A stretch of DNA of 64,000 bases from an uncultured archaeon (GTDB taxonomy: Archaea; Altiarchaeota; Altiarchaeia; IMC4; QMZM01): assembly GCA_964549685.1 (NCBI GenBank), contig CAZJVE010000002.1:5246-69245 (forward strand), written 5' to 3'. The first letter of the stretch is position 1; the number at the start of each line of letters is the position of its first letter. A program made the position numbers and the translations under genes. The notes beneath the pieces are model-generated. The model worked only from the letters and a program-made list of their open reading frames with translations, had not been told where the DNA came from and searched no databases. Shown here one piece after another: positions 4,964 to 38,782 of the stretch.

Positions 4964-5539
4964 CTAATCAACGTTTACCTTGACCCCGCTACTCTTAACC
5001 CTCCTTAATTTCACCTCAAGGACGCCGTTCTTGTAGCTGGCCTTTGTGGTGTCGGGCTTCACCCTTGCCGGAAGCCTGAGCTCTTTGTGGTACTTCCTGT
5101 CAGGAGTATCGACCCTAATCTGCAGGCTATCCTCGGTAGCAGACAAATCTATGTCCTTCTTCTCTATTCCTGGCAACTCTGCAATAATGGAAATCTCCTT
5201 TTCACCCTCGATAACATCGGTCAGGGGCTCCCTGTCTGTTGAAATCTCTGTCCCTTCCCCGCCGGAAACATTTCCAAACTCCTCGACATGCGGCTTTCCG
5301 TCAGGGCCCACTCTCATGGAAAAGCCATATACGTACGGGCCTTCCTCTCCCAGCCCTTCAATCGAGGCCTTCCTCATCTCCTCAAACATCTTGCCCATGT
5401 TCTTCTCCATCTCCTCAAATTCCCGGTCAAGCTCGTCAAAGATATCATCCCTGAACGGCCATCTCTTCTTTGGTGGGGACATTTTATTGCTTGTGATTTT
5501 TAATGGGTTTGGCTGTTTATCGCAAGTAAAAATATTCAC
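4964..5539 (-). CDS. Hsp20/alpha-crystallin small heat-shock protein
   Basis: The alpha-crystallin domain spans [17 protein letters not shown]...[10 protein letters not shown]. The true start is probably the internal ATG at 5482 ([10 protein letters not shown]...). Confidence 0.9.
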
Positions 5540-9133: not shown

Positions 9134-11863
9134 ATGAAAGAGGTGGTTGAAGTGCCGCAGACACATAAAAATCTCATTCCGGTTCTGGCCCTGCTATTAC
9201 CTCTTCTATTTGTAGGATTCGCCGATGCCGCAGTTTACAATTGCAGCAGTTGTGCAGACTGCACCGGAAAGATACAGAATGCGTCTGCAGGAGATACCGT
9301 GTATCTTGTGGCGAATCTCACTAATTACTCTGGAAGCTGCATTGAATTTGGAGCCACTAATATAGAATTTGACTGCCAAGGGTACTTGATTGAGGGCTAT
9401 TCTGATTACTCTGGAATCCAAATAGGTGTGAAATATATGAGTGGGACAACCAACAACACCGTTAAAAACTGCATCATCGTGGGTTTTGGGCGTGGAATCT
9501 ACATATGGCAATCCCCTTACAACACCCTAATTAATAATACAGTCACAAGCAATGGCTACGGTTATGGAATCGACCTATGGTATTCCTCTTACAATAACCT
9601 CACCAACAACAACGCCTCAAACAACTATGCTGGAATTTATCTTGGTCACTCTGACTACAATATCCTAACTAATAACATTGCAAACCTAAACAATGGAGGG
9701 GTAGGACTCGGTTCTTCATCCAACAATACTCTAAATTCAAACCAGGTTTGCCATAATACAGACTCTGATTTTTATTTTTATATTTATGGTGGCCTAGACA
9801 ATTCTGGCGATGAAAACACCTGCGACAACCCGGGTGACTGGAACGACGCCACAACGACCGGATGTACTTATTCCTGCATCGCAACCACAACGACCACTAT
9901 CCTAGTGGAAGAATGCTCTCTGGTAGGCGACACCCCGCCCTGCGGCGAGGTCACTATGGGGGAAGTAATCGACCTCATAATCCTATGGTCCAACGAACAA
10001 GCAGAACTTGGGGATGTGCTGGACCTTATTGATGTATGGGCGAATCCCACCACGACGACTTCGACAACCACCACCTCAACCTCGACATCATCGACGACAA
10101 CAACCTGTCTAGGGGAGGGGGAACAGATTATGTTTGAGCCTTATCAAGTTTATGAAGTATGTTGTCCGGGTCTTACTTTGATTCGAGATGGTTATCCCTC
10201 GGAACGAATAGGTAGAGATGACTATTGCATATATGCTAGCTGTTCTTGTTATATCTGCACCAAATGCGGCAATGGAATTTGCGAGAATGATACGGGAGAA
10301 AACTGGTGCAGCTGTCCCGGGGATTGTCCAGAACCGGAGGAGGTTCCATGCACGACAGATGATGAGTGTGGAACGGATAGGTGTTGGATGGATGACAACA
10401 TATGTTATGAAATGGTATTTCAGTGTTATGAAAACGGCCAATGCTCAGCTATAACAACTACTGGTAGTTTTGTTAACTATTCGTGTGTAGGTATTTCGTG
10501 TGTTCCTCCAACAACATCAACCTCAACGACAACTACAACATCAACCAGCACAACCACGACAACCACAACGAGCACCACCACAACCTCGACGACCAGCACC
10601 ACCCTGATACCTGCAATGTTCCTGGACAATGCAACGCTGATGGTAAACGACACAAACAAAATCGCAGAATCGAACCCGTCTAGCCTGATAGTCATAAACA
10701 ATACGGGAGTGAACCTGACCTTCGCAGCAACCACGCCCCTGAATATAAGCATCTACGAGGACAGTCCGACGGGGACTTTACTCAACGAATTTGCCTGCAG
10801 CACGGTTCCATGCGGCGTTTGCAGCGTTCTCCTAACAGAGGGGAACGTAACGGAAATATTCGGTTTGGACGGGCTTGATGCGGAAAGACTCTACCTGGAG
10901 GCAGCGGCGGGCGCCTCCTCATGGAACCTGCTGAACATAACGCTGGGCGAAGCAAACATAACAAAGAGCAAAGACGCGGCACAGCTTAATGTCAGTACCT
11001 CCGTGCAAGTAAATGTAACTGCATACGACCAGCCGGTTCCCGGAGTAACCATTGCGGTCAGGAATTCCACTAATTCCACCATGAATTCCGGCGTAACAGA
11101 CAGCAACGGTTCCGTCGAGATACTGCTGGCCCCCACAGAGTCGGACACTCTCGGAATCTGGCTAAATGATGTGCCGTCTTCAGACCACACCATCAGCGCC
11201 ACCAATACTCTGTCCGTTGCCTACACACCCGAAGACCCAATATTGGGTCAGCCCATACTCCTTTATGTCCGGCCGTATGGTTCCACAACAGACCTGGTTG
11301 AAGACTCTTATGTTAACCTAAGGTCGCCGGGCGAGTCCGGATATACTCTATATGCGGCAGCAAACGGGACATATACTATCCAAACCCCAATAGTGGGCAC
11401 GTATGCAATATACGCGGTTAAGGATGGCTGGATTGATAGTGGCATTGCCTATATAATTTTTGGTGCATCATGCAACATAATGACATCGTGTATAACTACC
11501 ACATCAACGACCTCGACGACAACGACGATTCCCCAGTTGGCAGTGACCCACACTCCGTCAGTACCGAACATACTTGAATCGTTGATATTTTATGTAAGGC
11601 CATATGGCAACACCACAGCAATAGTTGAAAACTCCCATCTCTATCTAAGGGCGCCGGCTGAAGCAGCATATTGTCTATATGCTGCACCTGACGGAACCTA
11701 TACCATAATCTCGCCTGAAGCGGGTGACGAATATGCAGCATATGCAACCAAGGAGGGGTGGACAGATAGCGATGTTGTGTATACAGTAATCGCCGCTTCA
11801 TGTGACTGGGAGGGCTGGATAGACAGCGATGTTGCGTATACACTCGGTGCATATGACTGCTGA
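9134..11863 (+). CDS. large secreted surface protein: right-handed beta-helix (NosD/PbH1-like) repeats, poly-Thr linkers, Cys-rich module, tandem C-terminal beta-domains
   Basis: A signal/TM segment is followed by repeats of N-x-[LI]-x-N-N (NTLINNTVTSN, NNLTNNNASNN, NILTNNIANLN). Several TTTTSTSTT linkers are present. A ~85-aa unit is duplicated at the C-terminus. Confidence 0.8.
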   Translation: MKEVVEVPQTHKNLIPVLALLLPLLFVGFADAAVYNCSSCADCTGKIQNASAGDTVYLVANLTNYSGSCIEFGATNIEFDCQGYLIEGYSDYSGIQIGVKYMSGTTNNTVKNCIIVGFGRGIYIWQSPYNTLINNTVTSNGYGYGIDLWYSSYNNLTNNNASNNYAGIYLGHSDYNILTNNIANLNNGGVGLGSSSNNTLNSNQVCHNTDSDFYFYIYGGLDNSGDENTCDNPGDWNDATTTGCTYSCIATTTTTILVEECSLVGDTPPCGEVTMGEVIDLIILWSNEQAELGDVLDLIDVWANPTTTTSTTTTSTSTSSTTTTCLGEGEQIMFEPYQVYEVCCPGLTLIRDGYPSERIGRDDYCIYASCSCYICTKCGNGICENDTGENWCSCPGDCPEPEEVPCTTDDECGTDRCWMDDNICYEMVFQCYENGQCSAITTTGSFVNYSCVGISCVPPTTSTSTTTTTSTSTTTTTTTSTTTTSTTSTTLIPAMFLDNATLMVNDTNKIAESNPSSLIVINNTGVNLTFAATTPLNISIYEDSPTGTLLNEFACSTVPCGVCSVLLTEGNVTEIFGLDGLDAERLYLEAAAGASSWNLLNITLGEANITKSKDAAQLNVSTSVQVNVTAYDQPVPGVTIAVRNSTNSTMNSGVTDSNGSVEILLAPTESDTLGIWLNDVPSSDHTISATNTLSVAYTPEDPILGQPILLYVRPYGSTTDLVEDSYVNLRSPGESGYTLYAAANGTYTIQTPIVGTYAIYAVKDGWIDSGIAYIIFGASCNIMTSCITTTSTTSTTTTIPQLAVTHTPSVPNILESLIFYVRPYGNTTAIVENSHLYLRAPAEAAYCLYAAPDGTYTIISPEAGDEYAAYATKEGWTDSDVVYTVIAASCDWEGWIDSDVAYTLGAYDC

Positions 11864-11935: not shown

Positions 11936-12247
11936 ATGGACAAACGGAAGATAGCGGAGGATTTCGCATCGTCGGTCAAGAAGAAGAACCCGCAGATAAG
12001 GAAGATTATCCTCTTTGGCTCCGTGGCGAGGAAAGAGGATAAGAAGGGCTCTGACATAGACCTGATGCTAATCTCAGAGGGTGACAGCAGGGAGGTAAAG
12101 AAGAGCGTGATGAACGACGTAGTGGAAACCCTGCTGGACAAGTCCGTCTATGTCTCCGCAAAGGTCGTTTCGCAGAACGAATACGACAGGATCAAAAACA
12201 CTCACTTCATCTCCGAGATAGAGAACTCAGGTGTTCCGATTGGATGA
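11936..12247 (+). CDS. minimal nucleotidyltransferase (MNT-type antitoxin)
   Basis: Carries the motif GSVARKEDKKGSDIDLMLI (GS..D.D). It is 103 aa and overlaps the downstream HEPN gene. Confidence 0.85.
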   Translation: MDKRKIAEDFASSVKKKNPQIRKIILFGSVARKEDKKGSDIDLMLISEGDSREVKKSVMNDVVETLLDKSVYVSAKVVSQNEYDRIKNTHFISEIENSGVPIG

Positions 12248-12611
12248 AAAAGACCTGCTGATGGAGAAGGCAAAGGAAAAGCTTGAAGTGGCGAAGGATT
12301 TGCTTGAGGAAAAGCATTATTCCGATGCCGTAAGCAGGGCCTACTACTCGATGTTCTTCGCTGCGAGGGCTCTCCTTTCCATGAAAGACATGTACCCAAA
12401 AACGCACAGGGGTGTCATCTCCAAGGTCGCTGAAGAATTTGTGAAAGATAAGAAGCTAAGCCAGGATGTCTTCAGAGATTTCGCGGCGACGCAGGAGGAG
12501 CGAGAAAAGGCAGATTACGGAATAATATCCGATATTTCTAAAGATGATGCAAAAGATGCAGTAATGGCGGCCGAAAGATTCATTGGGGCGGCCAAAGAAC
12601 TTCTTGAATGA
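12231..12611 (+). CDS. HEPN-domain protein (toxin partner of MNT)
   Basis: 126-aa helical protein with AVSRAYYSMFFAARALL and KTHRGV, characteristic of the HEPN family. It overlaps the MNT gene by 17 nt. Confidence 0.8.
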   Translation: MFRLDEKDLLMEKAKEKLEVAKDLLEEKHYSDAVSRAYYSMFFAARALLSMKDMYPKTHRGVISKVAEEFVKDKKLSQDVFRDFAATQEEREKADYGIISDISKDDAKDAVMAAERFIGAAKELLE

Positions 12612-12615
12612 ACAG

Positions 12616-12896
12616 TATCAGGCAGTGACCATAGTCCATCTTCTGTGGGCTTTTAGAGCGCCTGCGCGAGCAGACTGTAGCCCTGGGGCATTCGTCTGAG
12701 CGGCCCGTAGGCCTTTCACCCAAAAGAGCATTCGTTTCACAATCCTGCTGATGTCTTCCCCCGGAGGGTCATAATTAACCATCAACAGGAATCTCGTCTC
12801 TGTGATGCTCCGCTGATTCTCACCAGCCGTTAGCAAGGGGTGGATGGAACTTCCTCACAGCCCGAAGCTGCGGAGCCCCACGGCCACTACCTGACA
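12616..12896 (-). ncRNA. rnpB: RNase P RNA (archaeal)
   Basis: Read on the minus strand. P1 is a 13-bp terminal helix, UCAGGUAGUGGCC/GGUCACUGCCUGA, whose two G-U pairs would be A-C mismatches on the other strand. P2 is GUGGG(G)CU/AGCCCAC and P3 is the hairpin GCAGC-UUCGG-GCUGU. A CR-I-like GAGGAAGUUCCAUCC pairs with a CR-IV/V-like ACAGAAGAUGGACUAU to form P4 with the conserved bulged U. A GGGUGAAAGG element is also present. A TATA box sits ~27 nt upstream. Confidence 0.8.
12621..12633. repeat. direct repeat GGCAGTGACCATA, right copy (inside the RNase P RNA 3' end)
   Basis: See the left copy. This copy lies 10 nt after the HEPN stop codon. Confidence 0.7.
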
Positions 12897-12917: not shown

Positions 12918-12926
12918 TTTAAATAA
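12918..12926 (-). promoter_or_regulatory. TATA box of the RNase P RNA gene
   Basis: Minus strand reads TTATTTAAA, 22 nt upstream of the first base of the P1 helix. It overlaps the stop codon of the upstream TIGR00725 gene. Confidence 0.45.
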
Positions 12927-13392
12927 GGCTCAGGGCGGCTTTTACCGCCTCTTTAGGCTTCGCCCGGTGGATTCCCTCCGCAACCCTGTCAACAGAATCA
13001 GAAATTCCCCCGCTGCCCTCAACGACAACAACGGGCTTCCCGTGGTTCAGCGCCAGCGCAACCTCCGACAGCGTGCCCACCCCGCCAGAGACTGCGATGA
13101 CCGCATCGGCACATGAGACGACGATGGAGTTCCTGGCATAGCCCATCCCCGTTGTTATTATAACATCAATATAAGAATTTGCATCCTCCTTGTCCAGCCC
13201 CGGCAGGATTCCCACCGTGGTTCCGCCCGCCTCCTTCGCGCCCCTGCACGCGGCCTCCATCACTCCCCCGCGGCCGCCGCAGATTAGAACACAGCCCTCC
13301 TTCGCAACGTCCCTGCCGATTCCCGCTGCAATATCTCTAACAGTCTCAGATAACTCGCTGTCACTACCCACCACTGCTATCTGCCTCATCAT
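12919..13392 (-). CDS. TIGR00725/SLOG (LOG-like Rossmann) family protein
   Basis: Contains IAVVGS...ICGGRGGVMEAACRGAKEAGGTTVGILPG...AVSGGVGTLSE. Confidence 0.8.
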   Translation of the reverse strand: MMRQIAVVGSDSELSETVRDIAAGIGRDVAKEGCVLICGGRGGVMEAACRGAKEAGGTTVGILPGLDKEDANSYIDVIITTGMGYARNSIVVSCADAVIAVSGGVGTLSEVALALNHGKPVVVVEGSGGISDSVDRVAEGIHRAKPKEAVKAALSLI

Positions 13393-16300
13393 AGCCCTCC
13401 ATGCTTGACAGCTTCTCCTCCAGAATGGACTCCAGGCTGAAGCCCTGCCTCATCATCGAGGCTATCTTATCTGCCAGTGATTTCCTCTTTAAGTTGATTT
13501 CATCAAGCTTCCTCTTCAGTTTATTGTCTTCATCCATGAGCTTACTCTTCTTTTCATGGAGCCTGGCCTCGCTTTCCTCCAGCGCCCTGACACTCACCCC
13601 CCTGCTCGTTCTAACCTTGTTCAATTCACCCTCAAGCCTCCGAAGTTCTGTGCTGATTTCATTGAACTTGACATTCATGGCTTCACTCTCCCCGACAATA
13701 ACCTCTATCCGGTTATCTATCCCCGTCATCTCCTTCTCCAGAGCGGGGCCGGTCTTCATCATCTCCTCTATAGACTTGGAGAGTTCCGTTTTCTTCCTTG
13801 TCATTATCTCCTGCCTGCTCTTGAGTCTCGCCTGCCTCTCAAGTATTTCTGCCCTCTTGTGCTTGATGGTCGTCCTCTGGGCCTGGATGCTCTTAAGCTC
13901 CTGGCTCTTGGAGACCTTCTCCCTCTCGACATCCTTCTCCTTGACATTAAGTTCGTTGATGCTGTTCCTTATCCCGCCGACTTTCTCCTTGAGAGCGGAT
14001 AACTCCCGCTCCATGGCCTGCGATTTATCATCCATGTCCTTCATCTCCTTCTCCAGAGCGGGGCCGGTCTTCATCATCTCCTCGATGGGCTTGGAGAGTT
14101 CTGCTTTCTTCTTCGTCATTATCTCCAGCATGCTCTTGATTTTTGCCTGCTTCTCAAGGAAGCCGATTCTTACCTTCTGAACCTCGGTCCTCTGGGCCTG
14201 AACCGCACCAAATTCACCCTCGCTCTTATCCCTTTCCTGCCCGATGGAATCCCTTCTTGAATCCAGATTCTTGATGTCCTGCACAGCAACCCTGATTTTC
14301 TTTGCCAGGGCCGGTAGTTCATGTTTCATGGCGACGGATTCGGTTTCAAGCGCACGAATCTCGGTCTCCAGACGGGATATCTCCTCCGAAACCGTTTTCT
14401 CCTCGGCAGAGGTGCTGTTTTTCTTGGCCTCGAGCCTCTGCATCTCCCCCTCAACGTCGGACTTCCGACCGACAAGCACACTCTTTTCGGTCATGATATC
14501 GGCCTTCTGCTCCCTCACGCCCGCAATCTCGTTCTCTCTCTGGACCTTCTCCTGCTCGATGCCCTTCTCCCTTGCATCAAGCTCCACAATCTGCTGCTCC
14601 ATCTCCTGAAGCCTAACGTCCAGTGCCGAAGAATCCTGATTGACGGACTGAATCGCCTCATCTACCTTCTCAAGCTCGGACTCCATAACGGAGCAGCTCT
14701 TCATAAGGTCTGTAAAACCGGCCTTTATCGTCCCTTTCTTATCCTCAAGCTCCCCAAGCTTTTTATTTATGTTCAGCCTCATGCCCGTGGCCTCGCTTTT
14801 CCGTTTCAGAACATTCTCCCTCTTTTCCTTGATATCAGAGAGACTCTTCTCTGCCCTGAATTTCTCCCCCTCGATGCTCTTCTCATTGGAACTAAGCTCC
14901 AAAACCTGCTGCCCTATCTCCTGCAGCCTGGTGTCCAGTGCCGAAAACTCCTTATCGACGGACTGAATGCTATTCTCAATCCCTTCAAGCTCAGACCCCA
15001 GCTCTGAGCGGCTCTTCATAAGCCCTGCGAATTCTTTTTTAAGGACCTTCTTCCTGTCACCAAGCCCCGCAAGCCTTTCCTTTATCTCCGTCTCCCTGGA
15101 AAGGAATTCCTGCTTCTCCTTCTCTATCTTCTCCTTACTCAGCTTAATCTCTCCAATCTCGTTCTCCTTATTGACCTTCTCCTGCTCGATGCCTTTTTCC
15201 GTGTTCTCAAGTTCCACAATCTGCTGCTCAAGGCCATTTATATTATCCTCCAGCGGATGCAACCCATCCTCGTTCGCCTTTAGTTTCTTCTCTATCTTTT
15301 CAAGAGCCTCCACAAAGACCTGCTCCTTGGCGACTATCGCTTTCTTTTCAGCTTCCTCTTCCAGTGCAGTTTCTTCCCCTCCGACCCCCTTAATCTTCTC
15401 ATTCAACCCGGTTTTCTTGACTTCAAGCTCCCGTATGTCCTCCTCTATCTCCGACTTCCTCTCAAGGAGTGCGTCCCTCTCGCTCAGAATCTTGGCCTTC
15501 TGCTCCCTCACGCCCGCAATCTCGTTCTCTCTCTGGACCTTCTCCTGCTCGATGCCTTTCTCCCTTGCATCAAGCTCTACAATCTGCTGCTCCATCTCCT
15601 GCAGCCTAACGCCAAGGTTAGAGAATTCCTGGTTAATCGACCGGATGTTGCCGTCAGCATTCTTGAGTTCAGACTCCAGGACAGAGCGCTTCTTCTTAAG
15701 CTCGGCAAACCCGGCTTTGATATCCCTTCTCTTATCTGCAAGCACCCCGAGCCTTTCCTTTATGCCCTGCATCAGGGCCGTAGCCTCCTCCCTTTTGCTT
15801 ACAATCTCCGCCTTTCTCTGCTTGATTTCAGAGAGTTCCGTTTCTCTGCGAACCCTATCCCTGTCAATGCTCTCCCCCTTGATATCAAGCCTGTCAATCT
15901 GTTGCCCGAGTTCCTCTATCTCTTCGTTCAGGGACGAGAACTCCTGATTCAGTGACCTAATCTCTTCATCGACGCCGTTTAATTCGGACTCTATATTGGA
16001 AATCTCTTCCGATACGGTCTTGTTTCTCATGAGCAGGCCCTTCTTGTTGGTCTCGAGCCCCTTCATATCCTCCTCTATCTCCGACTTCCGTTTCTGAAGG
16101 GCGCCCCTATTGCTCAGAATCTTGGCCTTCTGCCCCCTCACACCCGCAATCTCGTTCTCCTTATTGACCTTCTCCTGCTCGATGCCCTCCTCCCTGCTCT
16201 CAAGCCCCCGGATTTTTTCATTTACTTCCTCAACCTCTTTCTCCAGCGATGAAACCTTATCCTGAATGCCCTTCAACTCCTTTTCGATTTTGCTGAGCCC

Positions 16301-18379
16301 GGTTTTCACCTCAACCTGTTTTGTGTTCAGGCCGTCAAGCTCGTTCCTCAGGGTGTTCTTCCTGTCACCAAGCCCCGCAAACCTTTCCTTCATCTCCGTC
16401 TCCCTGGAAAGGAAGTCATGCTTCTTCTTTACAACCCCCTCCCTACTCTGCCTAATCTCGGAGAGCACCTTTTCCTTCTGGACCCTTTCCTGCTCGATGC
16501 CCTTCTCCCTGGATTTAAGCTCCTCGACCTGCTGCCCTATCTTCTGCAGCTTATCATCTAGCAAAGAAAACTCCCGATTGACGGACTGGCTCTCCTTATC
16601 AACTCCATCAAGCTCGGACTCCAGGGCAGAGCGGTTCTTCATGAGGTTTGAGAATTCCTTCCTCAGCACCCCTCTCCGGTCACCAAACCCCGCAAGTTTT
16701 TCCTTTATCTCTGTCTCATCGGCAATGAAGTCCTGCTTCTTCTTTATAGTCTCCTCCCTACTATATTCAATCTCGGAGAGCGCCTTTTCCTTCTGGACCC
16801 TTTCCTGCTCGATGCCCTTCTCCCTGGATTTAAGCTCCTCGACCTGCTGCCCTATCTTCTGCAGCTTATCATCTAGCAAAGAAAACTCCCGATTGACGGA
16901 CTGGCTCTCCTTATCAACTCCATCAAGCTCGGACTCCAGGGCAGAGCGGTTCTTCATGAGGTCTGAGAATTCCTTCCTCAGCACCCTCTTCCTGTCACCA
17001 AGCCCCGCAAGCCTTTCCTTTATCTCCGTCTCCCTGGAAAGAAATTCCTGCTTCTTCTTTACAGTCTCCTCCCTGCCCTGCTTAATCTCGGAGAGCGCCT
17101 TTTCCTTCTGGGTTCTTTCCTGTGTTGTGTTTGCCTCATTCGCCTCAAGCACCTGTATCTCCTTTTTCAGATTGCCTGTTTTTTCTTCCAGCGATGAAAC
17201 CTCCCCCCTGGTTTTTTTGGAGGACTCCTTTATCCTCTTGAGTTGTGATTCTAATTCCGCTATTGACTTATCCTCCTGGGATATCTCCTTCAGCAGCTCG
17301 ACCTCCCTGAATAGTTTAATCTTTCTCTCATGTTCTTCTTTTATTTCCTCAGGGGTCTTTTTTAATTCCTCCGCCTCCCTTTTCCTTTCCTCCTCTTCCT
17401 TACGCTTTATATCCGCTAACTCATCATCCCTCTTTTTTAGCTCCTCCTCTATTTTCTTGAACCTGTCCTCGGTTTCCTTTCTCTTCAGCCCCTCCTCCTC
17501 TCTAATCCTCTTCAGCTCCGCCTCCCTTTTCCTTGCCTCTTCCTCTAACTTTTTCCTCCTAAGCCCCTCCTCCTCTCTAATCCTCTTCAACTCCTCCTCT
17601 TTTTCCCTTGCCTCTTCCTCTAACTTTTTCCTCCTAAGCTCCTCTTCCTCTCTGATTCGCTTCAACTCCTGCTCCTTCTTCCTCACTTCCTCCTCAGCCT
17701 TCCTCTTTGCTTCGCCCTCTAATTTTTTCCTCCTCAACTCTTCCTCCCTTCTCCTCAGCTCCGATTCCCTTCTCCTCAACTCTCCATCTGCCTTCTCTCT
17801 GGCCAGTCCATCGTCCCTTTTTATCTTGTCCAGCTCCTCACCCTTTTCCTTCAGAACAGCCCCGACGGGTTCCTCCTTCAATTCGCCCCCCTTCAGCCTC
17901 TCTTCTACCCTGGCCTTCTGGCGTCTCTCCTCCTCTGCCTTTTTGAGCGCCTCCAGCTGCTTCTTTCTCGTCTCATCAACCGGATATTTATGTGTCGGCG
18001 CAACCTGCGTGGTTTCTATAACCCCTTCGCGTCTTTTCTTGGCAATCTTCTTCTTCATGACGCCCAGAAGCCTATCCACTCTCTCGGCCTCCTCAACCTC
18101 CTCGGCCGTTTTCTTCTTCAGGGTTTCATCCACGTGCTTGATAGCCTGTTCCGGAGAAATAGCCTCCCTCAGCTTCTTACCCTTCTTGAGAATCTTATCC
18201 CCTACAATGGAGTAGTGAATCTCTATAATCTCGTGTTCCACCAGAATCTTTGCCAGTTCTTCAGTAGTCTTTTCATCCAACCCAAGAATCTTTCCAGCAT
18301 CAGCTAACTTAATCTCTCCCCTTTTGCTCACAAGCGCTACAAGCTTGTCAAGACCGGTCTTTATCTTACTCTTTGGCAT
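13364..18379 (-). CDS. giant (1671 aa) helical-repeat protein: N-terminal winged-helix-like domain, E/R/K-rich 25-aa repeats, and about twelve 105-aa repeats
   Basis: A single uninterrupted ORF. The 105-aa units are punctuated by REKGIEQE(K/R)V. It overlaps purC upstream by 14 nt and the TIGR00725 gene downstream by 29 nt. The long antisense ORFs are low-complexity shadows of this gene. Confidence 0.85.
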   Translation of the reverse strand: MPKSKIKTGLDKLVALVSKRGEIKLADAGKILGLDEKTTEELAKILVEHEIIEIHYSIVGDKILKKGKKLREAISPEQAIKHVDETLKKKTAEEVEEAERVDRLLGVMKKKIAKKRREGVIETTQVAPTHKYPVDETRKKQLEALKKAEEERRQKARVEERLKGGELKEEPVGAVLKEKGEELDKIKRDDGLAREKADGELRRRESELRRREEELRRKKLEGEAKRKAEEEVRKKEQELKRIREEEELRRKKLEEEAREKEEELKRIREEEGLRRKKLEEEARKREAELKRIREEEGLKRKETEDRFKKIEEELKKRDDELADIKRKEEEERKREAEELKKTPEEIKEEHERKIKLFREVELLKEISQEDKSIAELESQLKRIKESSKKTRGEVSSLEEKTGNLKKEIQVLEANEANTTQERTQKEKALSEIKQGREETVKKKQEFLSRETEIKERLAGLGDRKRVLRKEFSDLMKNRSALESELDGVDKESQSVNREFSLLDDKLQKIGQQVEELKSREKGIEQERVQKEKALSEIEYSREETIKKKQDFIADETEIKEKLAGFGDRRGVLRKEFSNLMKNRSALESELDGVDKESQSVNREFSLLDDKLQKIGQQVEELKSREKGIEQERVQKEKVLSEIRQSREGVVKKKHDFLSRETEMKERFAGLGDRKNTLRNELDGLNTKQVEVKTGLSKIEKELKGIQDKVSSLEKEVEEVNEKIRGLESREEGIEQEKVNKENEIAGVRGQKAKILSNRGALQKRKSEIEEDMKGLETNKKGLLMRNKTVSEEISNIESELNGVDEEIRSLNQEFSSLNEEIEELGQQIDRLDIKGESIDRDRVRRETELSEIKQRKAEIVSKREEATALMQGIKERLGVLADKRRDIKAGFAELKKKRSVLESELKNADGNIRSINQEFSNLGVRLQEMEQQIVELDAREKGIEQEKVQRENEIAGVREQKAKILSERDALLERKSEIEEDIRELEVKKTGLNEKIKGVGGEETALEEEAEKKAIVAKEQVFVEALEKIEKKLKANEDGLHPLEDNINGLEQQIVELENTEKGIEQEKVNKENEIGEIKLSKEKIEKEKQEFLSRETEIKERLAGLGDRKKVLKKEFAGLMKSRSELGSELEGIENSIQSVDKEFSALDTRLQEIGQQVLELSSNEKSIEGEKFRAEKSLSDIKEKRENVLKRKSEATGMRLNINKKLGELEDKKGTIKAGFTDLMKSCSVMESELEKVDEAIQSVNQDSSALDVRLQEMEQQIVELDAREKGIEQEKVQRENEIAGVREQKADIMTEKSVLVGRKSDVEGEMQRLEAKKNSTSAEEKTVSEEISRLETEIRALETESVAMKHELPALAKKIRVAVQDIKNLDSRRDSIGQERDKSEGEFGAVQAQRTEVQKVRIGFLEKQAKIKSMLEIMTKKKAELSKPIEEMMKTGPALEKEMKDMDDKSQAMERELSALKEKVGGIRNSINELNVKEKDVEREKVSKSQELKSIQAQRTTIKHKRAEILERQARLKSRQEIMTRKKTELSKSIEEMMKTGPALEKEMTGIDNRIEVIVGESEAMNVKFNEISTELRRLEGELNKVRTSRGVSVRALEESEARLHEKKSKLMDEDNKLKRKLDEINLKRKSLADKIASMMRQGFSLESILEEKLSSMEGYDEADSSGG
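16454..16670 (-). repeat. in-frame coding repeat, copy A (one 105-aa unit)
   Basis: About 217 nt matching 16769..16985 with only 2 mismatches. The offset is exactly 315 nt, or 105 codons. Confidence 0.9.
16769..16985 (-). repeat. in-frame coding repeat, copy B
   Basis: See copy A. A second near-identical pair (~117 nt, 3 mismatches) lies at 14501..14617 and 15494..15610, offset 993 nt, which is a 3-unit super-repeat. Confidence 0.9.
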
Positions 18380-19274
18380 CTTTTAGATCATTCCCGGTTA
18401 TCAGCCTATAGACCTCCAGGTACTTGTCCCTGGTCTTCATCACGATATCCTCGGGAAGTTCCGGTGCAGGGGGCTCCTTGTCCCAGTTGATTCCAAGGAG
18501 ATAGTCCCTCACGAACTGCTTGTCAAAGCTCTTCTGTGCTCTCCCTGGGCAATAATCGTCCATGGGCCAAAACCTCGACGAATCAGGGGTTAGAATCTCG
18601 TCAATCAGGATTAATTCCCCGTTCAGCAGACCGAATTCGAATTTCGTATCCGCTATCATAACTCCTTTTGATTCCGCATAGGTCGTTGCCTGACTGTAAA
18701 TCCCAAGAGTCGTCTTCCTGAGCCTGCCTCCTAGCTCATTCCCGATAATCTCATTCATCCTCTCCTCGCTGATGTTCTCATCATGGCCTGAAGATGCCTT
18801 TATTGCGGGAGTGAATATGGGTTCCGGCAGCTTTTCAGACTCGGTCAGCCCGGAGGGCAGCTCTATGCCACAAACGCTGCCCGTTTTCTGATACTCGGCC
18901 CACGCCGAACCGGAGAGATAGCCCCTGGCAACGCATTCTATGTCTATCCTCTCCGCCTTCTTAACCAGCATGCTCCTGCCCTCGAGAATTCCTTTGCTAT
19001 CTTCTGAAACGCTGGGGAATTCATCGACATCGGCACTAATGAGATGGTTACCTACAAAGCCCTTCGTATAATCGAACCAGAAAACGGACAATGCCGTAAG
19101 AACCGCCCCCTTCATCGGGATTCCCGTCGGCAAAACAGAATCAAAGGCAGAAATCCTATCAGTAGCAATAATCAGCAGTTTGTCCCCTAGGTCATAGATA
19201 TCCCTAACCTTGCCCCTCTGGGAGAGCTTCAGCTCCTGAATCTCGGTGTTGAGAATGATACCATCCATCATCAA
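18366..19274 (-). CDS. purC: phosphoribosylaminoimidazole-succinocarboxamide (SAICAR) synthase
   Basis: 302 aa. Contains GKVRDIYD, ATDRISAFD and ADTKFEFG. Confidence 0.95.
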   Translation of the reverse strand: MMMDGIILNTEIQELKLSQRGKVRDIYDLGDKLLIIATDRISAFDSVLPTGIPMKGAVLTALSVFWFDYTKGFVGNHLISADVDEFPSVSEDSKGILEGRSMLVKKAERIDIECVARGYLSGSAWAEYQKTGSVCGIELPSGLTESEKLPEPIFTPAIKASSGHDENISEERMNEIIGNELGGRLRKTTLGIYSQATTYAESKGVMIADTKFEFGLLNGELILIDEILTPDSSRFWPMDDYCPGRAQKSFDKQFVRDYLLGINWDKEPPAPELPEDIVMKTRDKYLEVYRLITGNDLKDAKE

Positions 19275-33731: not shown

Positions 33732-34706
33732 TTAACCCTCTCTCCTTTCCCTGTGTCTGGGCTCGAGTTCGTTCTCCTTGGCGAACTGGTCCAGTATTCC
33801 TCCCACCTTCACTTTCCTTGTGAGGTAGTCGGCAATCCTGACGGGGTACAGCTGCGGGTGGAGGAGGTCGTCCTCCCTAGCCCAGATTGCGACGAGGTTC
33901 TCCAAATCAGGGACGAAATCGGGGTATGCGAACTCCCACTTTACTGTGAGGGGGCTGCTCTTTCTGGAGGGAACATAGCTCAGCGCCTTCGAGGGCAGTT
34001 TCACATAGCAAATATTGACGCCGTCCTGCTCCTGCACCACGAACTCGTTCTCCTCGAGGGCGAGGTCGAACACCGCGATGTCCGTCAGCTTGGTTCCAAG
34101 GGACCTGGCGATTCCTACTGATGCAGAGTCCTCGACCATGCCGACGAGCCTTCCGGAATCCCTCAGCTTGTTGTAGAGGTTCATCAGCGTTTCACTGCCC
34201 TTGATTCTCTTGAGAACGGTGGAGATGCTGCCGTCGAGGAGGAGGTAGTCTGCATTGGAATCCATCTCCTTGAAGGAGTCCAACAATGATTTGTATTCAT
34301 ATGCGACTCTAATAATATTTGAATTCTCCTCAATTCCATCATGGTTTTCAAATTTTCCGATGTCGAGAGTTGAGTTGTACTGCAGGTCCCTGTAAAGTAT
34401 CTTCCTGCCGCCGACCAGCGGGTCTTCATGCATCGAGTTGTCGAAGATTCCGAAAAGGCTCACGGCATGAATCGCCCAGAGGGCTGCGAACCTCATCTCC
34501 TTGGACACAATGGATGAGTCGACTGCCAGAATCCTGGTCTCCCCTTCCTGAGCCCCGGGGTTCAGCTTCTTTATCGCGAACTGCGCCGATACTGCATCCC
34601 TCAGCTCTGCAGAATCAACATCTATGTGAATGGACTCTTTCAGTTTCAGAAACTTGTCCTCCAGAATCTCAGCATTAAAATCAAAATCAGGTGTTAGTTC
34701 CTTCAT
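33732..34706 (-). CDS. NurA-like nuclease
   Basis: The motifs RILAVDSS (N-terminal catalytic Asp) and YLLLDGSI are typical of the NurA domain. It is 324 aa and overlaps the upstream HerA-type ATPase gene by 20 nt. Confidence 0.65.
   Translation of the reverse strand: MKELTPDFDFNAEILEDKFLKLKESIHIDVDSAELRDAVSAQFAIKKLNPGAQEGETRILAVDSSIVSKEMRFAALWAIHAVSLFGIFDNSMHEDPLVGGRKILYRDLQYNSTLDIGKFENHDGIEENSNIIRVAYEYKSLLDSFKEMDSNADYLLLDGSISTVLKRIKGSETLMNLYNKLRDSGRLVGMVEDSASVGIARSLGTKLTDIAVFDLALEENEFVVQEQDGVNICYVKLPSKALSYVPSRKSSPLTVKWEFAYPDFVPDLENLVAIWAREDDLLHPQLYPVRIADYLTRKVKVGGILDQFAKENELEPRHRERREG
33885..33911. repeat. 27-nt direct repeat, copy 2 (inside the NurA-like coding region)
   Basis: On the minus strand it encodes PDLENLVAIW of the NurA-like protein. 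See copy 1 at 33111..33137. Confidence 0.7.
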
Positions 34707-37700
34707 TCTTTCCGCTCTCAGCCTCCTTCAGCTCCTTGTCTATCGCCTCTCTCCTGGCCCTCAGATCGTCCATCTTCTTCCACTCTTCTTCCATCTGCGT
34801 GAAGATCTCCCAGCCCTCGCCCTTACCTTCCAGCTCGCCGATTTTCTTCTTCTCCGCCTCTATCTCCTGCTCTACCCTCTGTTTTTTCATTCTCAACTCC
34901 TCTATATTCGCTGCAGGGACCTCAACTCCCTCTGGCTTGGCCTCTTCTGGTTTCGGTGCAGTGCTAGGAGCGGCCTCTTTAACCGGAGCTGCCGTGGTTG
35001 TCGATGGCGCAGACACCTCTGACTCCAGACCAGATCTGATTTTTGCCAGCTCCTTCTCCAGGGCCTCCCTCTCTGCCCTCATATCGTCCATCATCTTCCA
35101 CTCCTGCTCCATCTTCTGGAAGTCATCCCAGCCGACGTCTCCCTTCTTCGGTTTCTTATCCCCCAACTCCTCTTTCTTCCCCTCGAGCTCCGTTATCTTC
35201 ACCTCCCGCTCGATTATGCCCTTCCACTTGTCCTTCATTTCCTTCAGCTCGTCATGGAGCTTATCCTTATCCTCTACGAGACCCTTTCTCTCCTCCCTCA
35301 CCTTGATCTTACTTTGCTTCCTCTCGGCATCGAGCCTCTTCTGCAGCTCTTCGTCGCTCTTCTTCAGGCCCTCCCTCTTGGTGGCGTCTTCTTCCAGTGC
35401 AACCTGGCCAAGAATATCCTTCCTCTTCGCGATTCCGCTCTGGATTTCACCGACCATCTTCTGCGCTACCTTCTCCTCCTTGGCGCCTATCTCCTTGTCC
35501 ATCTGAAGAATCATCTCCTTGTCCCTGCTTATCATCTCTCTGCGCTCTCCAATCATCTTCTCCGCCTTCTTCAGGGCGTCCTCCTTTTTCTGTGCATCTT
35601 CCTTTAACCTCTGCTCCTCCTCCACCTGCTTCTTCTTCTCCTGTTCAATCTCTGTCGTCTTCATATCGCTGAGTTCCTTCAGCTTCTCCTCCCCGATTCT
35701 CAGCTTCTCCTTCTCCTTGAGGGCAACCTCCTCCCTGAGTATCTTTATCTTCTTGTGCTTCTTCAGGAGCTCCAGAACCTGGGCCCTGCTCTTGAGCTTT
35801 ATCTCCTCGGCCTCGAGCTCACCTATTATCTTCTCTTCGTCCTCCCTCAGTTTCCTCTTCTCCTCCTCTATCTTCCTCATGGTCTCTTCCTGCTTCTGCC
35901 TGAGACTCGTCTCCCTATCACCTATCCTCTTCTCCTCTTTGTCCAGGATTGCAGAGAGTTCCCTCTCGTACGCCTTTATCTCTTCATCCCTCTTTGCGTC
36001 CCACTCGGATTTTATGGCCCGCTCCTCCTCGGAAATCTTGCCTGTCTTCAGCCTCTCAACATAATCCTCTATCCTCTCTGCGAGAGAATCGATGTAGAGG
36101 TCGACAATGCCGAACGAGCCGCCCTTTATGTTGTCTATGGCAAGCTTCATCTCCAACTCTATGTCGAAGATGTCCAGCTCCGCCTTCCTGAGGGTTTCGA
36201 GCTTAGGCATGAATCCATCAATCTTTTCGTTATACTTCGCATACTGTCCAAGCTTTTCGTTGGACATGCTGTTCGCGTTGTGAAGGGCCGGCCTGAAGCT
36301 TACAAAGTAGGGGTTGCCCTTGTTGTATTCAGGATTCTGCAGCATGCCCTCCCCGACATTGGCCTTGACCACTGACTGGTAGATGTAGCCTCCATACTTC
36401 AGGTTTATCCTGTCCAGATCCTCCTTGTACCGGGTCTGCATCTGAATCTCCGTCCCTATGTTTGCCTTTATCTGGCCTATGAAGTCCTTTAGAACTTGTG
36501 ATATGAGAATCACGCCGATTCCGAAGCGCCTGAATTCCCTCACGGCCTTCTCTATCTGGACGAAGCCCTTGCCGACCCCGCCGAACTTCGGCAGAATCCT
36601 GTGAATCTCGTCAAACACCAGGATTACCTTGAGCTTTGGGCTGTCACCGAACTTTGCGCTGAATATGTCCTCTATAGCATTCGATATGAACACCTCCATG
36701 TCGGGATTGTTCAGCTCCCTCATGTAGAAGACGCTTATCTCTCCGGGATGTATGTGGTGCTTCAGGTCTATCCTCTGGTTGGCGTCTTTTATCGCATAAA
36801 CGTTGCCCTTGAAGGCCTTCGCGTCTGCATTCTTCATCTTGTAGTTGCCATACCTCTTGAACATCTCATCATCCTTGTTTGGCTCCAGGAAGCCGGTCCA
36901 CTGGGCGGTGGGGTCGAACACTATAACGGAGACGTCGCTCTTCATCAGCGCCTCCTCGACGAGCACCTGGGCAGAGTGGGTCTTTCCGCAGCCAGTTGTT
37001 CCTGCCATTAGGGTATGTGATGCAAGCGAATCCAGATAGAGATAAGCGTCGGCGTTCATCTCCGCTATCTTCCCCATGTATCCTGATTTCGGACCCTTGT
37101 GCGGAAGCGCGTCAAATTTGATTGACTCCAGATACCTCTTCCTCCTTTCACGCCCCTTTTTGTACCTCCCGTAAAAGGACATGAGGATTCCAAGCGCGAT
37201 GAGCAGGAAGAACCCCAGTACTATCCTGGCGCCCGTAATCTCTGCGATAATCGGGTCAAGCCTGTCAATAAGTGACCTTCTGATAGTAAGCTTCTCGACG
37301 TCGCTCGCCTTCGCTGTTTTGTTCCCCTCCCCCGTATAATAGAGAACCCCAGTAATCTCATATTCCGTGTCCACAACCTCCCAGGGGATTATCAGTTCAG
37401 TGCTTGTTTCAAGCACGACGTTCTCCGGCAGTATGATTCCGCTTTCCTTCTTGACCACAATGGTGCCCATTGCTGGGTCCTTCATTATCACTTCCAGGAG
37501 GGTTTCCGTCCTTCTCTGGACCAGGTTGGATATCTTGGACCTGACGACGACGGTGCCCCCTGGTTTGTTCTCAATACTGTCCAGCCCTATATCCAGGTCC
37601 AGGGAGACCTCCGTCACAACCTCGAGGACCTCGAGTTTTAGCGGTATCGTCCTTACCTTTCCGTTAACGTTTATGAGTACGTCTCCCTCATAGAGCCCTG

Positions 37701-38016
37701 GGTTGGAATTCTTGTTTATGTAGCCCCTTACTCTCAGATATCCCGTCTCATTGGGTGCTATCCTGACGTAACCCTTCTCTATCTCAGGGACTATATTCTT
37801 AATCCCCTGGCTTATGGAAGAAACCTCGACAAGTATCCCTTCATCGTCGTTGTTCGTTATGGTCAGCAGACTGTCGACAAAATCCCCCGCATATTCCCTT
37901 ACAGATATATTGCTGGGCGTTATCTCCACCGACTGCCCGGATACAGAGGCAATACTAACCAGAAGTAGGAGCGCAACCAAAAATCCTGTGTTTAATCTGT
38001 TATTGTGAATATGCAT
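34687..38016 (-). CDS. membrane-anchored HerA/FtsK-superfamily (DUF87-type) ATPase with extracytoplasmic N-domain and ~470-aa C-terminal coiled coil
   Basis: A signal peptide (LVALLLLVSIASVSG) leads into a ~260-aa beta-rich ectodomain and then a TM helix (IVLGFFLLIALGILMSF). Walker A is MAGTTGCGKTHSAQ and Walker B is KVILVFDEIHR. A long E/K-rich coiled coil follows, ending in a duplicated W..F..ME.EWK.MDD.RA.REA motif. Confidence 0.8.
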   Translation of the reverse strand: MHIHNNRLNTGFLVALLLLVSIASVSGQSVEITPSNISVREYAGDFVDSLLTITNNDDEGILVEVSSISQGIKNIVPEIEKGYVRIAPNETGYLRVRGYINKNSNPGLYEGDVLINVNGKVRTIPLKLEVLEVVTEVSLDLDIGLDSIENKPGGTVVVRSKISNLVQRRTETLLEVIMKDPAMGTIVVKKESGIILPENVVLETSTELIIPWEVVDTEYEITGVLYYTGEGNKTAKASDVEKLTIRRSLIDRLDPIIAEITGARIVLGFFLLIALGILMSFYGRYKKGRERRKRYLESIKFDALPHKGPKSGYMGKIAEMNADAYLYLDSLASHTLMAGTTGCGKTHSAQVLVEEALMKSDVSVIVFDPTAQWTGFLEPNKDDEMFKRYGNYKMKNADAKAFKGNVYAIKDANQRIDLKHHIHPGEISVFYMRELNNPDMEVFISNAIEDIFSAKFGDSPKLKVILVFDEIHRILPKFGGVGKGFVQIEKAVREFRRFGIGVILISQVLKDFIGQIKANIGTEIQMQTRYKEDLDRINLKYGGYIYQSVVKANVGEGMLQNPEYNKGNPYFVSFRPALHNANSMSNEKLGQYAKYNEKIDGFMPKLETLRKAELDIFDIELEMKLAIDNIKGGSFGIVDLYIDSLAERIEDYVERLKTGKISEEERAIKSEWDAKRDEEIKAYERELSAILDKEEKRIGDRETSLRQKQEETMRKIEEEKRKLREDEEKIIGELEAEEIKLKSRAQVLELLKKHKKIKILREEVALKEKEKLRIGEEKLKELSDMKTTEIEQEKKKQVEEEQRLKEDAQKKEDALKKAEKMIGERREMISRDKEMILQMDKEIGAKEEKVAQKMVGEIQSGIAKRKDILGQVALEEDATKREGLKKSDEELQKRLDAERKQSKIKVREERKGLVEDKDKLHDELKEMKDKWKGIIEREVKITELEGKKEELGDKKPKKGDVGWDDFQKMEQEWKMMDDMRAEREALEKELAKIRSGLESEVSAPSTTTAAPVKEAAPSTAPKPEEAKPEGVEVPAANIEELRMKKQRVEQEIEAEKKKIGELEGKGEGWEIFTQMEEEWKKMDDLRARREAIDKELKEAESGKNEGTNT

Positions 38017-38056: not shown

Positions 38057-38782
38057 TTATTCCTTTGCACCATCTTCCTTCAATAGAGTGAATGGAACCT
38101 CTTTCGAGGATATCGAAACTCCCTCAGATGTGATGGTGACCGGCCTTATGTCCGAAACTATCTTCGTACCCCGTATTTTCACAACCCAGATACATCGCTC
38201 ATTATTGGCTCTATATCTCGACCAGAACATTATTATGAGGCCATCGGATAGAAAGTGCTCTGCCCCGTATCTCAGCTTCAGAAAGCTCTCCGAGAGCTCC
38301 GCGGTCATTAAAGTCGTGCACTTGTTCTTCCTCATCATCTCAAGGAATCTCAGCATATGGATTCTCCTGGAGGCTTCCTCCTTGAAGAGGTAGTTGAAGA
38401 GAGTTACTGAATCGAGGACCATCCTGCTGGCCTGGGTCTCCTTTATTACGTCTCTTAGAATTCCAAAGTCCATGCCCAGGTCCATATCGGTTCCTTCAAA
38501 AATCTCTCTCCCGAGAATGGCTATCTTCCCGGCATCCTCGTACTCCCTTACGTTCCACCCAAATCCTGCCGCATAGTTTTCCACGTCCTCTACGGTATCC
38601 TCTACCGTTATGTAAACGCCTGGGTCATCATACTTGGCAACTCCGTTGTAGATGTACTGCATTGCAAGATTACTCTTTCCTATCCCTGGAGGCCCAGAAA
38701 TAACGGTAGTGCTGCCCTTGGGCAGACCCCCGTCCATCATATCGTCGAGCCCGGGAATTCCGGTCTTTAGCTTTTCTACCAT
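38057..38782 (-). CDS. KaiC/RadA-like single-domain RecA-superfamily ATPase
   Basis: Starts KTGIPGLDDMMDGGLPKGSTTVISGPPGIGKS (Walker A). It is 241 aa, typical of archaeal KaiC-like ATPases. Confidence 0.85.
   Translation of the reverse strand: MVEKLKTGIPGLDDMMDGGLPKGSTTVISGPPGIGKSNLAMQYIYNGVAKYDDPGVYITVEDTVEDVENYAAGFGWNVREYEDAGKIAILGREIFEGTDMDLGMDFGILRDVIKETQASRMVLDSVTLFNYLFKEEASRRIHMLRFLEMMRKNKCTTLMTAELSESFLKLRYGAEHFLSDGLIIMFWSRYRANNERCIWVVKIRGTKIVSDIRPVTITSEGVSISSKEVPFTLLKEDGAKE

Follow-up and report, generated by a model that had tools for sequence, protein, structure and literature searches.

The 64,000-nucleotide stretch of DNA analyzed here (the window; positions 5,246 to 69,245 of the forward strand of contig CAZJVE010000002.1, assembly GCA_964549685.1, from an uncultured archaeon of the Altiarchaeota) carries on its minus strand a gene for a protein of 1671 residues, built mostly from tandem copies of a 105-residue unit (Table 1). 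The reading frame is intact over 5 kb, as called in the initial annotation, and the orthologues share the same start, MP.S(K/R)I(K/R)TGL. The start codon overlaps the stop of purC by 14 nucleotides and the 3′ end overlaps the start of a SLOG/TIGR00725 gene by 29 nucleotides, with the RNase P RNA gene coming next and an RNase J-like beta-CASP gene lying upstream of purC. The genomic context described earlier is therefore borne out by the coordinates, and a core chromosomal setting of the gene is supported. The conservation of purC and SLOG as neighbors suggests co-transcription rather than a common pathway. The protein consists of 19% Glu, 14% Lys, 10% Leu, 8% Arg and 0.7% Pro, with one Cys and no Trp, and it has no signal peptide or transmembrane segment (the maximum 19-residue hydropathy is 0.89), so that a secreted or surface fiber is rejected. 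Long Ser/Leu/Phe-rich open reading frames (ORFs) run antisense to the gene (window 13401-18307, plus strand; for example, 16266..18215, 649 aa); these are mechanical by-products of the purine-rich coding strand and not genes. From the N terminus onwards, the protein has a winged-helix-like module, a charged zone rich in Glu, Arg and Lys (the E/R/K zone) and a very long heptad-repeat rod with a conserved motif at its center. The arrangement that we propose is a fold-back rod resembling the arms of SMC proteins, to which a probability of roughly 0.45 is given.

Table 1. Features of the 1671-residue protein gene and its surroundings in the window
Feature	Position in window	Strand	Basis
Whole gene, 1671 aa and stop codon	13364..18379	minus	ORF call
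Conserved N-terminal module, aa 1-117: winged-helix-like domain (aa 1-65) and two helices	18029..18379	minus	Alignment, AlphaFold2, Foldseek
E/R/K-rich zone, aa ~140-343, 25-aa (75-bp) repeats	17351..17962	minus	Tandem Repeats Finder, 75-bp period at 17487..17683
Degenerate unit ahead of the N-arm, aa 310-416	17132..17452	minus	Hidden Markov model (HMM)
Conserved rod-start motif, aa 353-380, IKLFREVELLKEISQEDKSIAELESQL	17240..17323	minus	Kept in 7/7 orthologues reaching it
N-arm: five 105-aa (15-heptad) units, aa 417-941	15557..17131	minus	HMM, unit alignment, heptad scan
Central 121-aa unit, aa 942-1062, sixth of eleven	15194..15556	minus	HMM; aligns with divergent central unit of orthologues
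Candidate apex/hinge: GVGG (aa 998-1001), then central motif AEKKAIVAKEQVFVEA (aa 1010-1025)	15305..15388	minus	Only heptad discontinuity of the rod (+2); orthologue alignment
C-arm: five 105-aa units, aa 1063-1587	13619..15193	minus	HMM, heptad scan
Partial C-terminal unit and acidic tail, aa 1588-1671	13367..13618	minus	HMM, composition
purC (SAICAR synthetase), conserved upstream neighbor	18366..19274	minus	Pfam/NCBIfam profiles, synteny across loci
SLOG/TIGR00725 family gene, conserved downstream neighbor	12919..13392	minus	Pfam/NCBIfam profiles, synteny across loci
Archaeal RNase P RNA	12621..12891	minus	

With an HMM built from two units only (aa 522-731), 11 full-length, in-register copies are found to tile aa 417-1587, with per-domain E-values from 5e-50 to 5e-6, together with one weak copy (aa 310-415) and an incomplete one at the C terminus. 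The earlier count of about 12 copies of a 105-residue repeat agrees with these 11 units plus a degenerate one on the N-terminal side and a partial one on the C-terminal side, but not all of them are of that length: 10 of the 11 have exactly 105 residues and the sixth has 121. Tandem Repeats Finder detects periods of 315 bp (2.4 copies) and, in the E/R/K zone, of 75 bp (2.6 copies). The two DNA matches pointed out previously are reproduced, with 2 of 217 positions differing between the adjacent stretches 16454..16670 and 16769..16985 and 3 of 117 between 14501..14617 and 15494..15610, which belong to a super-repeat of three units. The units starting at aa 417 and aa 522 are 84-85% identical, marking the most recent duplication, whereas most units of the window are 20-60% identical to one another. 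In one orthologous locus (L004:8584-9258), two adjacent units share long identical protein stretches, as would be expected from a recent unit duplication or gene conversion in that lineage too.

The unit length of 105 residues equals exactly 15 heptads, and the consensus of the units has 25 strongly hydrophobic columns, of which 22 are on the a and d positions of one heptad frame. When ten units are considered, the d positions are 88% hydrophobic and the a positions 50% hydrophobic and 32% Lys or Arg, while at the other heptad positions the hydrophobic share is only 3-15%; Gly and Pro are nearly confined to the b, c, e and f positions. A sliding-window frame scan shows one frame from aa 436 to 1005 (570 residues), which crosses the unit boundaries, and, between aa 1012 and 1599 (~590 residues, with one short blip), another frame that is offset by +2. 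Three conserved helix-breaking points had been described for each unit in the initial annotation. However, the motif LAG(L/F)GDR is present in three units, ELDGVD in two and (R/T)EKGIEQE in five, the glycines of these motifs are found in only about half of the units of the unit alignment, where they are at surface b, c or e positions, and the Leu, Ile and Val residues of the same motifs are a/d core residues of the continuous frame. Clearly, the heptad frame runs through the supposed breaks, and the description of conserved helix-breaking points does not hold.

The same annotation had likened the units to spectrin and EzrA repeats, such that each 105-residue unit would be a three-helix bundle joined to the next by continuous helices. 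The unit is all alpha-helical and close in length to the 106-residue spectrin repeat (~105-106 residues in spectrin and EzrA), and in some units the Gly motifs are at about the right spacing; against this, the register is unbroken at every proposed loop and the glycines are not kept across the units. An AlphaFold2 model was calculated for four units (aa 837-1272), using a multiple sequence alignment of the window's own paralogous frames. In this model (mean predicted local distance difference test score (pLDDT) 78.5, and >90 in the paired parts) there are two helices, comprising input residues 2-224 and 235-435 (223 and 201 residues), connected by a single turn, with no fold-back within the units, and of the three boundaries between units within the fragment, two (input positions 106 and 332) are crossed by an unbroken helix. 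The Foldseek matches of the four-unit model in the PDB are the arms of Rad50, MukB, Smc and Smc5/6 and chemoreceptor hairpins, none of them at E<=1e-3, and neither spectrin nor EzrA is among these matches. Pfam gives no match to the spectrin (PF00435) or EzrA (PF06160) families, even at E<=1, and a PDB sequence search with the unit profile finds generic coiled coils only, with no spectrin chain among the best 60 of 396 matches. The spectrin repeat has a conserved tryptophan in helix A, which has no counterpart in this Trp-free protein, and an EzrA-type N-terminal membrane anchor is also absent, as judged from the maximum hydropathy given above. The structure prediction and Foldseek comparison with spectrin and EzrA, which had been proposed as a check, came out against units that fold back on themselves, and the idea is dropped, next to no probability being left for such an array of bundles. 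The spectrin analogy is wrong: the rod is a very long coiled coil and not a string of three-helix bundles.

The protein belongs to an undescribed Altiarchaeota family. When the N-terminal 141 residues are used as the query, three proteins are found in an index of 5.8 billion proteins, and pattern scans of genome and metagenome collections identify 17 loci, the genome loci being mostly labeled Altiarchaeota, Altiarchaeia or Altiarchaeales; so far, the family has been found only in Altiarchaeota. Searches of the 5.8-billion-protein index with the whole protein and with the unit profile give no match, as low-complexity words swamp the candidates and the full-length proteins are absent from this index. 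An exhaustive unit-profile search of 1.84 billion representatives gives 1524 matches to generic coiled coils (trimeric autotransporters, surface proteins), which are no proof of the repeat beyond the family. The only protein of this search with two tandem, in-register 105-residue units is P0014, a 368-residue fragment in which an unrelated C-terminal domain comes after these units. The window protein scores below the cut-off of every Pfam and NCBIfam family; the NCBIfam matches below cut-off are to the arm regions of SMC, Rad50 and ASRP (138 bits versus 567, and 65.9 versus 300 for ASRP). No description of this protein was found in the literature on Altiarchaeota combined with coiled coil, DnaA or cytoskeleton.

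Across the loci the gene order RNase J-like, purC, this gene and SLOG is kept, and the neighbors in the window are 75-83% identical to those of WALD01000043. The complete orthologues have 1144, 1142 and 1054 residues, with five to six units versus 11 in the window. In these short forms, unit i is closest to unit i of the other genome and the units within one genome are 25-30% identical, whereas the closest relative of each window unit is another window unit (44-85% identity), which shows that the expansion to 11 units is specific to the lineage of the window. Of 14 distinct related contigs, 10 end inside the gene, so the repeats break assemblies. In L001/L007 (3209-6661) the orthologue is broken up into separate ORFs of 229, 489 and 456 residues, whereas it is a single intact ORF of ~1143 residues in L006 and L003, which are close relatives; the split is likely due to assembly frameshifts or to a pseudogene.

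The stretch by which the sixth unit exceeds 105 residues, AEKKAIVAKEQVFVEA (16 residues), is matched in the alignment by AEKQALDAQQKIFLETLKEVE, which lies in the divergent central unit of each orthologue that extends this far. Judging from this alignment, the apparent insertion is a conserved central motif which is not private to the window. It is the best-conserved stretch of the rod, it is followed in the window by Pro1042 and it coincides with the window's only register break, a frame shift being seen near residue 790 in L003 and L006. The other reference point is the rod-start motif, with the pattern (E)L(I/L)xEI(S/A)xEDK, which is placed after the E/R/K zone. The distances from the rod-start motif to the center and from the center to the C terminus are 651 and 655 residues in the window, 335 and 342 residues in both L003 and L006, and 336 and 348 residues in L015. 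The arms are therefore equal in all four complete sequences, in the long and the short length classes alike, and since the center is at the midpoint in both classes, the lineage of the window must have added three units (315 residues) to each arm. With the coiled-coil rise of 0.1485 nm per residue, the computed lengths are 15.6 nm for one unit of 105 residues, ~97 nm for a window arm of ~650 residues and ~50 nm for a short-form arm of ~335 residues. As the unit is exactly 15 heptads long, each added unit lengthens the rod by 15.6 nm and leaves the register undisturbed.

The charges on the rod surface provide information on strand orientation. In a parallel, in-register arrangement the g-e′(+5) pairs are net repulsive (26 attractive versus 44 repulsive), which is worse than in ~99% of shuffles. 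When the antiparallel g-g′/e-e′ pairs are scanned, the best register is at S=2004, with 45-46 attractive versus 20-22 repulsive pairs, and this is exactly the symmetric register, in which unit 1 is paired with unit 11, unit 2 with unit 10 and so on. In a repeat-preserving permutation, p=0.026 is obtained for the symmetric register when it is taken as a prior hypothesis. The charge pairing is thus suggestive in disfavoring a parallel in-register dimer and favoring the symmetric antiparallel register, and, together with the symmetry of the arms, it suggests an antiparallel arrangement.

Conservation along the protein is highest in the N-terminal module, which includes the conserved basic helix RLLGVMKKKI and has 28 columns that are identical in all five aligned sequences. 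Its AlphaFold2 model has the topology H-b-H-H-b-b followed by two helices, at low confidence (mean pLDDT 53), and the Foldseek matches of this low-confidence model are almost all MarR-type or other winged-helix DNA binders (best E 1.9e-3, template modeling score ~0.4), including Sso10a-2 and STIV F93. The sequence matches of the domain in Pfam and in the PDB are all below threshold. The winged-helix-like domain proposed earlier is therefore recovered as a topology by AlphaFold2 and Foldseek, but at this low model confidence and with no significant sequence match, and it is a probable DNA-binding domain. As in the Sso10a- and MarR-type proteins, the predicted winged-helix topology is followed by coiled-coil-forming helices; unlike these proteins, which have ~100-150 residues and no significant sequence similarity to it, the domain heads a rod-shaped protein of 1671 residues. 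The E/R/K-rich zone of ~25-residue repeats, also noted previously, is confirmed by the 75-bp period. By composition, charged residues make up 74% and hydrophobic ones 16% of residues 200-310, opposite-charge i/i+4 pairs amount to 52%, and the heptad frame of the zone shifts about every 25-35 residues. This highly charged composition fits that of ER/K single alpha-helices, and the zone is a candidate for such a helix or for a weak coiled coil, which would provide a tether of ~30 nm.

In one orthologue (L004, contig JAKFXM010000039.1, 7861-8565), a complete bacterial-type DnaA domain III (AAA+) is present between the E/K zone and the rod-start motif, which follows directly after it. The domain scores 2.8e-66 with Pfam Bac_DnaA and 343.9 bits with TIGR00362, and its Walker A, Walker B, sensor I/II and box VII motifs are intact when read by eye. 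L004 shares the synteny, the N-domain and the rod motifs with the rest of the family, and the GC content of its DnaA domain matches that of the rest of the contig. Unlike in DnaA itself, domains I and IV are missing and the AAA+ domain is part of an archaeal protein, with the E/K tether before it and the coiled-coil rod after it. In archaea, replication is initiated by Orc1/Cdc6, so that the presence of a DnaA AAA+ domain in an archaeal protein is unusual in itself. The winged-helix module is also found in other contexts. Stand-alone paralogues of 118-125 residues are encoded just upstream of purC in L001 (1861-2217), L003 (8651-9025) and L006 (3185-3559), and none was found in the 64-kb window. 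A distant winged-helix copy is present in L008 (8177-10210) and L009 (8420-10234) at the C terminus of a protein with a TIM-barrel-like domain and ~350 residues of E/K-rich coiled coil, the TIM-barrel-like part having a weak NanE/ribulose-phosphate-binding match in L008 and no Pfam match in L009. In L010 (9533-10219) a winged-helix domain follows a CBS pair. These fusions point to possible nucleic-acid or regulatory roles.

Among known systems, the rod is most like an SMC or Rad50 arm by analogy, yet it appears to stand outside these families. In SMC, Rad50 and ASRP proteins the ABC ATPase head is split, with Walker A at the N-terminal side and Walker B and the signature motif at the C-terminal side (PMC9389158), and the predicted structures of the ASRPs (ClsN, Sph1/2) are antiparallel coiled coils with a zinc hook (PMC9389158). 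The window protein resembles SMC, Rad50, MukB and ASRP in having a heptad coiled coil of great length whose two equal arms flank a special element at the center; at 335-348 residues, the arm of the short forms matches the SMC arm length, the arms of these proteins are the best Foldseek matches, and the only NCBIfam and PADLOC matches fall on arm regions. What it lacks is, first of all, the ATPase head: the earlier statement that there is no SMC-type head is correct, as no Walker A motif (GxxxxGK[ST]) occurs anywhere in the protein. There is also no hinge domain or CxxC zinc hook, the protein having one Cys in total and a conserved helical motif of 16-20 residues at its center. Instead of the ABC head, a predicted winged helix on an E/R/K tether is found at the base (with a DnaA-type AAA+ domain in one orthologue), and the arms are tandem 15-heptad units of varying number. 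The coiled-coil-rich bacterial cytoskeletal proteins crescentin, Scy and FilP are likewise long rods with internal sequence periodicity, but the head-rod-tail layout of intermediate filaments is not seen here, and the Crescentin rod family (PF19220) scores 18.3 bits versus a cut-off of 100. A role as an anti-phage defense protein was considered and rejected, as PADLOC gives only JetC and LmuB arm segments, with low scores.

The arrangement that would account for these observations is a cytoplasmic protein in which the winged-helix module (aa 1-117) is connected by the E/R/K tether of ~200 residues to a heptad coiled coil of ~1300 residues, whose two arms of ~650 residues would fold back at the central motif into one antiparallel coiled coil of ~97 nm, as in the arms of SMC, Rad50 and MukB. 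The winged helix and the C terminus would then be together at the base and the conserved motif would be at the tip. In the lineage of the window, the three units added per arm would have doubled an ancestral rod of ~50 nm. By analogy, the base may bind DNA or a nucleoid partner via the winged helix, the tip may bind a partner or a second rod, and the protein may serve chromosome organization or replication as a tether or spacer of a set length; a nucleoid-tethering or ruler-like rod, as suggested in the initial annotation, is a live hypothesis. It is the likeness to SMC, Rad50, MukB and the ASRPs from which we infer that the fold-back is within one chain, and by this analogy a single fold-back at the middle of the whole rod is the most likely arrangement.

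Several observations weigh against this fold-back rod. When the maximum over all registers is considered, p=0.31, so that the electrostatic signal is not significant after correction, and the central registers of the orthologues come within the top 2-5 without being first. The rod-start motif was picked as the reference point after seeing the data. The near-identical duplication of the units at aa 417 and 522 is confined to one arm. The turn of the AlphaFold2 hairpin is at the midpoint of the input fragment (aa 1061-1070), away from the central motif, and monomer predictions often fold any long amphipathic helix in half; this turn is therefore rejected as evidence for the apex. Furthermore, the winged-helix model is weak in its pLDDT and has no significant sequence match, the DnaA fusion is present in one incomplete contig only, which ends inside the gene, and conserved neighbors such as purC and SLOG give no pointer to chromosome biology. 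As an alternative, the protein may form a parallel, in-register homodimeric (or trimeric) rod of ~195-225 nm, of the myosin/M-protein type, with the winged helices at one end and the central motif as a local hinge. The 15-heptad unit would let tandem duplication lengthen such a rod with no matching change elsewhere, as in the one-sided latest duplication, Lys or Arg at 32% of the a positions is typical of two-stranded coiled coils, and MarR-type winged-helix proteins act as dimers. Nevertheless, this rod would have to accommodate the net repulsive g-e′ pairs, and it leaves the midpoint position of the motif and of the heptad break unexplained in both the 335/342 and the 651/655 forms; it is regarded as unlikely, although it carries real weight.

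The symmetry of the arms, the central discontinuity and the charge pairing would be explained equally well by an antiparallel homodimer of two chains, ~195 nm long, with the two copies of the central motif paired on the dyad and the winged helices at both ends, making a bipolar strut that spaces two DNA sites; only on the dyad of such a dimer would the heptad break be tolerated. Known long antiparallel coiled coils (SMC, Rad50, MukB) are, however, mostly intramolecular, the Gly cluster ahead of the motif and Pro1042 behind it fit a turn better than a straight dyad, and AlphaFold2 readily makes an intramolecular hairpin, so that this strut is considered decidedly improbable. A different possibility is that the gene is real but that its assembled repeat number is wrong, near-identical units having been collapsed or expanded. 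Matches of 217 bp with 2 mismatches and of 117 bp with 3 are of lengths poorly resolved by short reads, and the related contigs that stop inside the gene are in agreement with such an error. Most units, however, are so different (20-60% identity) that they are unambiguous, the reading frame is unbroken over 5 kb, and the two arms agree within 4 residues (651/655), an agreement which a one-unit error in one arm would break. The near-equal arm lengths argue that the assembled repeat number is correct, and an error of this kind is judged very doubtful.

Elsewhere in the window, on the minus strand at 33732-38016, a NurA gene (33732..34706) overlaps the gene of a 1109-residue protein (34687..38016) with an N-terminal signal-like segment and ectodomain, a probable transmembrane segment, a HerA/FtsK-like P-loop ATPase (Pfam) and an E/K-rich, repeat-bearing tail of ~450 residues. 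From its sequence, this protein reads as an unusual membrane-anchored HerA, and it explains the second purine-skew peak at 34-36 kb. It is adjoined by the gene of a single-domain KaiC/RadA-like ATPase (38057-38782, minus strand; PF06745, 1.1e-56). A minimal nucleotidyltransferase and a HEPN gene overlap at 11936-12611 (plus strand) in the layout of an MNT/HEPN toxin-antitoxin pair, beside the RNase P RNA gene and on the opposite strand. At 9134-11863 (plus strand) a secreted-type protein of 909 residues is encoded, with a right-handed beta-helix (NosD-like) domain, Cys-rich segments and several poly-Thr/Ser linkers, which is probably a cell-surface protein.

If the protein forms only a parallel rod, it still represents an undescribed, lineage-specific coiled-coil family of moderate interest. 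It is conceivable, although rather unlikely, that the Altiarchaeota possess an undescribed class of SMC-like fold-back rods with exchangeable modules at the base in place of the ABC head, these being a winged helix on an ER/K tether and, in one lineage, a complete bacterial-type DnaA AAA+ ATPase as well. The length of such rods would change in symmetric 15-heptad (15.6 nm) steps, and the protein would couple chromosome replication or organization, in an archaeon with two membranes, to a rod of defined length. If the fold-back is correct, the family would be a natural example of an SMC-like arm whose length changes by exactly 15 heptads at a time, with matching changes in the two arms and with related lineages bearing a winged helix or a DnaA-type AAA+ module as the head, not an ABC ATPase. 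This would point to a wider set of rod-shaped chromosome organizers in archaea, and would make the family a compact model for studying the importance of the length and symmetry of the arms.

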